From a virus (lineage: Duplodnaviria; Heunggongvirae; Uroviricota; Caudoviricetes): DNA of 12,828 nucleotides. The stretch lies in the IMG/VR virus record IMGVR_UViG_2623620502_000003, positions 1-12,828 of that record. The stretch is one strand, 5' to 3'. This document shows, piece by piece, positions 5,443 through 6,619 of the stretch. Numbering within the stretch: the first letter of the stretch is position 1; every line of letters begins with the position of its first letter. A program made the position numbers and the translations under genes. The notes beneath the pieces are model-generated. The model made no database searches, was not told the DNA's origin, and saw nothing but the letters and a program-made list of their open reading frames with translations.

Positions 5443-6216
5443 TCAAAAATTAGGTGAGTAACGGACCGGGGACATAGCTCCTTTTTTTCTTAATTCATCT
5501 GGTATTTTTTTTCCAAGATAAAGATTTGCTATTTCAGGTGGGGCTTCTCGACCTTCAAAACCATAGCGCGAACTTTGTGTTGCCTCAAAGTCAGGATCCT
5601 CGTCCCAGTATTTCAACGAAGGGAAATTTTCACGTGTTGATTTGAGCCATTTATCAGCAATGAAAACCCCTCGAACGATCCCCCTTACAGTAGCAAGAAT
5701 GATTTCTGCTTGGCTGGCGCGAGAGACATTAATGCGCCAGCTAAATCGAACCGCATCATAAAGCTCTGAATCCTTTGCACTTCTGTTAACGGATATCATT
5801 AATGCTTTATGATGAAATGTTATGGTTTCGGGCTGATATGTTGCTATCAACTCTTTGACATGCGCGGCGCCGAATTCATTGCTGCCAGCACCATTCATGA
5901 TATTCGTTAACCCAGGGTAGGCATCAATAAGTGCTGCTTCAACTTCGTACGCCGTCTTTTCATCAGTCATTCCGTGTCGATGGATGACATGGATAACTTC
6001 AAGTCCTGCTAACCTTATTTCTCTAATTTGCTTTAGCTTGTTGCTCAGTAACTCGTCATCATCAGTCGCTGCCACTTCACCGCGCATATGAGCAAATACG
6101 CGGTTACCTTTGCCTTTCCCTACATAGAAGGTGCTTCCGTCCCTCGGATCAATCAATCGATAAACATACCAGCCAAGGTGTTCAATTACTCCAGAAGGAA
6201 ACTCAGTAATATCCAT
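5443..6216 (-). CDS. GIY-YIG nuclease-domain protein with an unassigned C-terminal domain
   Basis: 257 aa from the ATG at 6216 (MDITEFPSG...); the ORF track's start at 6267 is a TTG with no Shine-Dalgarno. The N-terminus has GIY-YIG-like motifs: [16 protein letters not shown], a candidate catalytic Glu in YEVEAALI, and NIMNG. The C-terminal ~150 aa match nothing I recognise. Confidence 0.6.
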
Positions 6217-6619
6217 TTTGCAATATCTAGGAATTATTTGTGAGACGTATATTAATGAACATTGCAAGGGTTCACAACCAGTAGTATTGAGAAAACCATC
6301 GGAGAAATGAGGCTAATCCTTTGAATTTACATAGTATAAAAAAGATACTTTTCCTCATAATGTGAGCTAATTTTATGTTTCGTTTGATGATTGGACCGGT
6401 CTCGAAAACCGTAGGCACGTAGTATGCGTTAATTTATGAACAAACTACTTGTCTGCTGTTTTTCTGTCATTAGTCGTATATAGAATGATTCTCTATGCCT
6501 AACAAAGCATCACCAGTGCTAGATTACGTTGTAGTCACTGTTTAAATATCCAGATAAAATATTTCCTTCTGGGTTGAATGAGTGATAGAGTTTCACCCAT
6601 TAGACCCGTTGGAGGAATT
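6217..6619. promoter_or_regulatory. AT-rich divergent intergenic region between the GIY-YIG gene and the methyltransferase gene
   Basis: About 400 bp with no ORF above ~15 codons and many -10-like hexamers (TATAAA, TATAGA, TAAAAT). It ends in a GGAGG Shine-Dalgarno (6611-6615) 4 nt before the methyltransferase ATG at 6620. Individual promoters were not mapped. Confidence 0.4.

Follow-up and report, generated by a model that had tools for sequence, protein, structure and literature searches.

The locus

The window, by which we mean the whole stretch of 12,828 nucleotides analyzed here, runs from the C-terminus of J through the tail-fiber genes of a lambdoid prophage into its cargo end (Table 1). 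The gene this work is about, which we identify as CMoRE, also named PD-T4-3, comes immediately after tfa and is convergent with it. Next to it are a methyltransferase and an endonuclease that make up a restriction-modification (R-M) cassette, then IS5, a conserved flank, and an integrase.

Table 1. Features of the window and what each assignment is based on
Feature	Position	Strand	Basis and remarks
J C-terminus	10-1035
lom	1102-1701
stf	1760-4789
tfa	4789-5373
Hairpin between convergent tfa and CMoRE, likely intrinsic terminator of CMoRE	5374-5442	minus	direct fold
CMoRE / PD-T4-3 CDS	5443-6216	minus	257 aa and TGA stop at 5443-5445; ORF list, PADLOC, PDB, RefSeq
C-terminal modification-sensing domain, about residues 120-257, includes Y127	5446-5859	minus	9U75 alignment; boundary approximate
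N-terminal GIYxY-YIG nuclease domain, about residues 1-112	5881-6216	minus	Pfam and residue check; roles from PMC12923530; boundary approximate
Acidic run D52-D53-D54-E55 of the autoinhibitory loop	6052-6063	minus	residue check; loop function from 4A mutant (PMC12923530)
Upstream region, putative promoter and 5' UTR	6217-6414	minus	accompanies the gene in all genomic contexts
EcoRII-type type II R-M cassette (context only)	6415-9510		Pfam, NCBIfam, PDB; boundaries from homology comparison
Dcm-family methyltransferase with DNA_meth_N	6620 (ORF from 6578)-8053	plus	Pfam DNA_methylase and DNA_meth_N; NCBIfam PRK10458
EcoRII endonuclease	8088-9302	minus	Pfam EcoRII-N and EcoRII-C; PDB 1NA6, E = 6e-243
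IS5	about 9513-10708
Conserved flank	10709-11217
Tyrosine integrase, first gene of P4-like satellite	11312-12571

A sequence-only reading of this DNA had placed the gene between tfa and the att/int module of the prophage, beside a Dcm-type methyltransferase. Both halves of that description are partly right. The gene does sit in the cargo slot after tfa, but the integrase belongs to an adjacent P4-like satellite and not to the att/int module of the lambdoid prophage. In related genomes the genes that come after the integrase are an HTH regulator, a TOPRIM/DUF927 primase, psu, and an ogr/delta-like gene, together a P4-like satellite. Strain NT1F31 has the same tfa-CMoRE-M-R block, followed by a hypothetical gene, a fragment of a LysR-family gene and the chromosomal pao operon; the satellite and its integrase are absent there. 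A tRNA scan of the window found none, so the P4-like integrase is here without a recognizable adjacent tRNA att site. The neighboring methylase is of the Dcm family as claimed, but it is not a lone enzyme; it is half of a complete EcoRII-type R-M pair.

The mechanical ORF list gives a minus-strand ORF at 5443-6267, 274 amino acids from a TTG at 6267. Starting from the first in-frame ATG, at 6216, gives 257 amino acids (MDITEFPSG...). In loci 100% identical to the window, the RefSeq CDS WP_000355482.1 (774 nt) starts at this same ATG, and the numbering of the crystallized protein agrees with it in the PDB chain alignment, so we take the gene as 5443-6216. The ORF is intact, with its biological start at the later ATG. 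It is 43.4% GC, against 55.0% for stf overall and 48.4% for the window. The values first put forward, about 35% for the gene and about 60% for stf, do not stand, as stf reaches 62-64% only in its central Ala/Ser-rich part.

The gene had also been described as insulated by a strong bidirectional terminator on one side and a divergent AT-rich leader of about 400 bp on the other. The hairpin is real on both strands, at -21.1 and -20.8 kcal/mol (z of -3.7 and -3.8). The CMoRE (minus) strand has UUUUUCUUUUUU, a good U-run, after it, and the U-tract on the tfa strand is weaker, so the hairpin is likely an intrinsic terminator of CMoRE and a weaker one for tfa. Its bidirectional strength is therefore doubtful, and a consensus terminator scan, which allows only loops of 3-8 nt, called no site. 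The leader is just as it was described. Its GC content is 34.3%, and its length is 361 bp if the methylase is taken from the first ATG of its ORF, or 403 bp if it is taken from its RefSeq start. The part of it nearest the gene goes with the gene in every genomic context, and so presumably holds the CMoRE promoter and 5' UTR. This 198-bp region aligns, contiguously with the gene, to an O157:H7 locus; identity across 5385-6414 is 94.3%. A consensus promoter scan upstream of CMoRE found none, and no strong Shine-Dalgarno sequence is visible there. A looser scan gives weak sigma-70-like candidates only, at 8/12, such as TTGTGA-17-TAATAT at 6277-6249.

The identity of the gene

A search of PDB sequences returns two distinct chains, 9U75/9U8D (E = 5e-171) and 9U7U/9U7Z (E = 1.6e-150). 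The protein of the window is 97.3% identical to the first (9U75, CMoRE of E. coli O157:H7) and 85.2% identical to the second (9U7U, the enzyme of APEC O1). Both alignments are gapless over 257/257 residues, with 7 and 38 differences counted respectively. The PADLOC model for PD-T4-3 (PDLC04031) matches over positions 1-256 of 256 with E = 7.6e-140. In PHROGs there is a full-length match to phrog_5356, which is annotated as function unknown, and in NCBIfam no model matches the protein. Taken by alignment, the gene is a near-identical allele of a named defense enzyme, characterized both biochemically and structurally, and is thus already known. The sequence-only reading had called it an orphan and uncharacterized. 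Neither term is right, because there is high-confidence homology over the whole protein to a characterized enzyme with a defined target. The leading idea of that reading, a single-protein anti-phage nuclease carried as prophage cargo, was correct.

The two domains can be followed residue by residue. Pfam finds PF22945 (LEM-3-like GIY-YIG) at residues 28-110 with E = 2.2e-14 and 54.2 bits against a gathering cut-off of 27, so the GIY-YIG-like motifs noticed at the N-terminus are real. A residue check finds the GIYxY-YIG motif as W-Y17-V-Y19-R and F-Y31-V-G, along with R39, YEVEAALI (90-97) and NIMNG, and it also finds R80, V92, L96 and Y127. Residues 1-50 and 56-168 are identical to 9U75, and the N-terminal region differs from it only at positions 51 and 55. 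The seven substitutions relative to 9U75 are T51A, E55D, Q169K, I172V, N197H, S200T and L201M. T51A and E55D are in or beside the acidic loop, where the acidic run reads DDDE (52-55) in the window and in APEC O1 versus DDDD in O157:H7. The other five are in the sensing domain, which aligns to 9U75 without gaps; all five are conservative or nearly so, and none is at or beside residue 127. Pfam has no family at residues 111-257 at E ≤ 0.1. These C-terminal 150 or so residues had been said to match nothing, but they are the published domain of CMoRE that senses 5hmC and 5ghmC. The text of the CMoRE paper (PMC12923530) holds no numbered catalytic Arg, Glu or Asn mutants and no number for the catalytic Glu, so we argue the conservation of the catalytic residues from the identity to 9U75. 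As far as residues can be compared, every feature named in that paper is present in the protein of the window.

What is known of the enzyme

Vassallo et al. 2022 (PMC9519451) found PD-T4-3 as a defense gene by functional selection. Among the new systems, their main text mentions "a GIY-YIG nuclease" and does not use the name PD-T4-3; most systems in the selection came from mobile elements, prophages among them. According to Liu et al. (Nat Commun 2026; PMC12923530), who present the structures and mechanism of CMoRE, PD-T4-3 originates from strain ECOR68. Here are the main points of their work. The gene alone protects about 10^5-fold against T2, T4 and T6. T4(hmC) is sensitive to it and T4(C) is resistant. 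The purified enzyme binds and cuts DNA with 5hmC or glucosyl-5hmC and not DNA with C or 5mC. This specificity and the protection against T-even phages were demonstrated for the enzymes of O157:H7, APEC O1 and Klebsiella. Cleavage depends on the modification without a strict sequence requirement; the cut pattern is C N11 / N9 G, it leaves 2-nt 3' overhangs, and two modified cytosines are required (PMC12923530). An abortive-infection reading of the system fails because the defense was demonstrated to be direct, and non-abortive, at MOI > 1 (PMC12923530).

The same authors describe CMoRE as a tetramer, a dimer of dimers, and report tetramer mutants as well as active-site mutants (PMC12923530). 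V92, L96 and the beta1-beta2 loop lie at the tetramer interface and are needed for defense. The nuclease is the N-terminal domain, of the GIY-YIG type but with one tyrosine more (GIYxY-YIG: Y17, Y19 and Y31). A 15-residue acidic loop covers the active site and is autoinhibitory; when four consecutive acidic residues in it are changed to alanine (the 4A mutant), the enzyme cuts ordinary DNA and becomes toxic. In the co-crystal with 5hm-dCTP the C-terminal domain makes contact through the main chain of Y127. This domain is a new fold, for which the authors found no sequence or structural homologue (PMC12923530). More distantly, a Capnocytophaga homologue with 48% identity likewise depends on modification, and it cuts Mu DNA as well (PMC12366544). 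It is worth stressing how near all this is to the gene at hand: the family was recovered by functional selection in 2022, and the mechanism, structure and specificity published in 2026 are those of a protein that differs at 7/257 positions.

Distribution and the neighboring R-M cassette

Among 5426 complete E. coli genomes, 823 carry a close CMoRE allele annotated as a CDS, at thresholds of at least 95% nucleotide identity and at least 80% coverage. The identical protein is kept in many lineages. In 244 of these 823 genomes CMoRE is contiguous with the R-M cassette, and the other 580 or so (about 70%) are without it. The sequence-only reading had proposed to look for co-occurrence with R-M systems, and this is the answer: there is such an association, but only in a minority of carriers.

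The limits of each cassette are clear from the homology. In two loci that carry CMoRE only, homology to the window ends at 6414, past which the neighbor is an AraC-family regulator or IS1. On the opposite side of these loci is pinE or the remnant of a tail-fiber assembly gene. The CMoRE cassette is thus 5385-6414, and it occurs beside varied neighbors (pinE, the AraC regulator, IS1, the EcoRII R-M). The R-M cassette begins at 6415, so the boundary falls between the two. About 241 records contain it at 99% identity or more; they and the 244 genomes are essentially one set. The EcoRII system carried on plasmids shares only 80% identity with it, and CMoRE is absent there. The boundary at 6414/6415, the varied neighbors, the co-occurrence in 244/823 and the plasmid EcoRII without CMoRE together lead us to conclude, from these genome comparisons, that CMoRE and some 200 bp upstream of it form an autonomous cassette, a single-component system with no obligatory partner, and that the EcoRII-type R-M is a later, separate insertion beside it.

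One could instead argue that CMoRE and the R-M pair are a co-selected two-layer cassette sharing the 400-bp divergent control region, for instance with the N-terminal DNA-binding domain of the methylase tuning CMoRE expression, or that the substitutions in the sensing domain shift its range toward arabinosyl-hmC or modifications of bases other than cytosine. We consider either proposal unlikely. The chromosomal R-M allele is found essentially only beside CMoRE, as the counts above show, but one insertion inherited clonally with the prophage end explains this restriction equally well.

A defense gene and the alternatives

We believe the gene of the window is almost certainly CMoRE/PD-T4-3, a type IV restriction nuclease that depends on hydroxymethylcytosine and defends against T-even phages; its activity we infer from the 97%-identical enzyme. 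Like its characterized relatives, this allele would cleave DNA with 5hmC or 5ghmC, spare DNA with C or 5mC and protect against T-even phages. The conserved interface residues V92 and L96 suggest that it too is a tetramer, built as a dimer of dimers. With its C-terminal domain it would bind 5hmC or glucosyl-5hmC in the DNA of an infecting phage, which must carry two such cytosines about 21 bp apart. The N-terminal GIYxY-YIG domain would cut both strands at a fixed spacing (C N11 / N9 G) and produce 2-nt 3' overhangs, and the acidic loop over the active site would spare unmodified and 5mC-methylated host DNA. The expected outcome is direct, non-abortive immunity against phages of the T-even type.

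The adjacent R-M pair has a different reach. EcoRII restricts phages with unmodified CCWGG sites, and T-even phages escape it by their hydroxymethylated cytosines, which is exactly the DNA that CMoRE attacks. The two specificities are plausibly complementary, so the pair may cover both ordinary phages and phages that evade R-M. CMoRE would also be compatible with the Dcm-type methylation next door because it ignores 5mC. If so, this prophage end, beside a P4-like satellite, is a tidy example of layered immunity in which an EcoRII R-M is combined with a type IV enzyme.

The most serious objection to an active defense gene is that the copy may be intact but silent or attenuated, so that its present host gains no defense from it, because of a weak promoter or an allele-specific loss of activity. 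It is true that the scans upstream found no strong promoter or ribosome-binding consensus. The APEC O1 allele is only weakly active from its native promoter and needed a T7 promoter for robust defense (PMC12923530), so expression of the copy in the window is not guaranteed in its host. One study found condition-dependent expression of a PD-T4-3 in strain IAI46. Against this, the ORF is intact with all residues named in PMC12923530 conserved. The O157:H7 allele works from its native promoter (PMC12923530), and the upstream region of the window aligns with that of an O157:H7 locus at the 94.3% identity already given. Deleting PD-T4-3 from its native host, the clinical E. coli isolate NILS69, sensitized that strain to Tevenvirinae (bioRxiv 10.1101/2024.12.20.629700). 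The identical protein is also maintained in many lineages. On balance we regard a silent copy as quite improbable.

The other two ideas raised from the sequence do far worse. The first is a Seg/I-TevI-like GIY-YIG homing endonuclease that spreads itself by cutting a specific target in related phages. The catalytic fold is shared, full-length homologues in jumbo phages carry the annotation "putative homing nuclease," and there is a weak match to phrog_314, "homing endonuclease" (E = 0.0022), over residues 17-149, though this covers the catalytic core only. However, the sole Pfam match is the nuclease core, with no NUMOD, IENR1, zinc-finger or HTH module. [quoted passage not shown] The setting is wrong as well. 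The gene is neither in an intron nor between conserved essential phage genes; it is at the cargo end of a prophage after tfa or pin, beside variable cargo that is not of phage origin. The published biochemistry of a 97%-identical protein, the missing DNA-binding module and the genomic setting together refute this idea, which we give next to no chance.

The second is a Vsr-like nuclease that nicks T:G mismatches at CCWGG as the partner of the adjacent Dcm-type methyltransferase, and the adjacency is all that speaks for it. Vsr is of a different nuclease family than GIY-YIG, which is the only domain found here; Pfam and NCBIfam give no Vsr match. The methylase is already paired with the EcoRII endonuclease, and it is divergent from CMoRE, about 400 bp away and across the cassette boundary at 6414/6415. 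About 580/823 of the CMoRE genomes lack the cassette and the plasmid EcoRII lacks CMoRE. Together with the indifference of CMoRE to C and 5mC DNA, which it neither binds nor cuts (PMC12923530), this leads us, as far as sequence and published data go, to reject the partnership as having virtually no probability. In place of both ideas, CMoRE stands as defense cargo, and the reasoning that a low-GC, insulated gene after tfa should be defense cargo did pick out a true defense gene.

Comparison with known systems

Vsr resembles CMoRE only in having a Dcm-family methylase nearby. It has a different fold and a different substrate, the T:G mismatch, and it overlaps dcm in one operon, unlike CMoRE and the methylase of the window, which are oriented divergently in two separate cassettes and are not inherited together.

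The GIY-YIG type II restriction enzymes Eco29kI, Cfr42I and Hpy188I and the N-terminal domain of UvrC share the catalytic fold of CMoRE and its Tyr/Arg/Glu active-site chemistry. UvrC is the closest structural neighbor of its nuclease domain (PMC12923530). All of these recognize a sequence or a repair lesion, whereas CMoRE recognizes a base modification. Nor do they have the extra tyrosine (GIYxY), the C-terminal sensor or the acidic lid of 15 residues.

The type IV enzymes PvuRts1I and AbaSI, which depend on 5hmC/5ghmC, work much as CMoRE does, and their domains are unrelated to those of CMoRE. The site geometry of PvuRts1I is like that of CMoRE, two modified cytosines about 21-22 bp apart. 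Both systems join a modification sensor to a nuclease domain, target T-even phages, cleave at a fixed distance and leave 2-nt 3' overhangs (PMC12923530). PvuRts1I has a PD-(D/E)XK-type nuclease and an SRA-like reader, in contrast to the GIY-YIG nuclease and new-fold reader of CMoRE. CMoRE is not a member of the PvuRts1I/AbaSI family.

The real match is with the CMoRE enzymes of O157:H7 (WP_000355475.1; 9U75, 9U8D) and APEC O1 (9U7U, 9U7Z). They have the same full-length architecture without indels, and the copy in the window has in common with them the GIYxY-YIG motif, the acidic loop, the tetramer-interface residues, Y127 and the single-gene nature of the system. Their loci are of the same type too, past the tail-fiber genes at the end of a lambdoid or cryptic prophage. 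What sets the window apart from O157:H7 is the seven substitutions and the EcoRII-type R-M inserted alongside.

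Defence cargo beside CMoRE

The region flanking CMoRE gathers defence-type cargo in several lineages. We base this on the locus of the crystallised CMoRE allele (E. coli O157:H7 PA20, L004 10304-14765), where a different integrase lies a few kb from CMoRE; next come genes with the annotation 'ABC-three component system' protein, and an AAA ATPase. The P4-like satellite in our window has the integrase as its first gene. The last window position homologous to satellite-free loci is 11217. In the related loci L002 and L003, genes for an HTH regulator and a TOPRIM/DUF927 primase come after the integrase, and L003 additionally carries psu, an ogr/delta-like gene and a Drt3 defence system. 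ARAGORN found no tRNA in the window, and a 62-aa ORF overlapping the integrase stop (12568-12756) has no family match.

Features discussed in the text (the window unless another record is named)
Feature	Record	Coordinates	Remarks
Side tail fibre gene (stf)	window	1760-4789	low-complexity centre, especially about 2100-3300
EcoRII-type R-M cassette	window	6415-9510	complete
IS5 copy	window	9513-10708	
Part with the P4-like satellite integrase	window	11218-12828	integrase 11312 or 11381 to 12571
CMoRE homologue, example	Serratia phage Moabite MK994515.1	6406-7161	

The 4-bp flanks of the IS5 copy are unequal (CTAG left, CTAA right), and about 1.95 kb of strain NT1F31 sequence, with a hypothetical gene of 449 aa, is absent here. 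Together the flanks and the missing sequence suggest that a deletion associated with IS5 took place, not a simple insertion. The spot looks like a variable cargo slot, since other strains hold different hypothetical genes there (321 aa and 379 aa).

The tail-fibre C-terminus is swapped or interrupted in related strains, either by an IS1 insertion or as an S74 peptidase/pyocin-knob variant. The long centre of stf is Ala/Ser/Thr-rich at 62-64% GC and produces long spurious shadow ORFs of 372 aa (minus strand) and 336 aa (another plus frame).

CMoRE homologues in lytic phages

Lytic jumbo phages (250-285 kb) infecting Serratia, Pectobacterium, Pantoea, Klebsiella and Pseudomonas encode full-length CMoRE homologues at 37-45% identity and 97-99% coverage (records H83-H99). 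The annotation of some reads 'putative homing nuclease'. These homologues may be weapons of inter-phage competition against hmC-containing rivals. Among 50,697 sequenced phage genomes there is no CMoRE match of at least 60% identity, which leaves prophages as the only known source of the E. coli allele.

The EcoRII-type cassette

The cassette adjoining CMoRE pairs a Dcm-family methylase bearing a DNA_meth_N domain with an endonuclease in which the EcoRII-N and EcoRII-C domains are both present. The match of this endonuclease to PDB 1NA6 has E = 6e-243 and an identity estimated by eye at about 86%. This chromosomal allele is present at ≥99% identity in about 241 records, essentially only adjoining CMoRE. 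The plasmid EcoRII system is only 80% identical to it at the DNA level.
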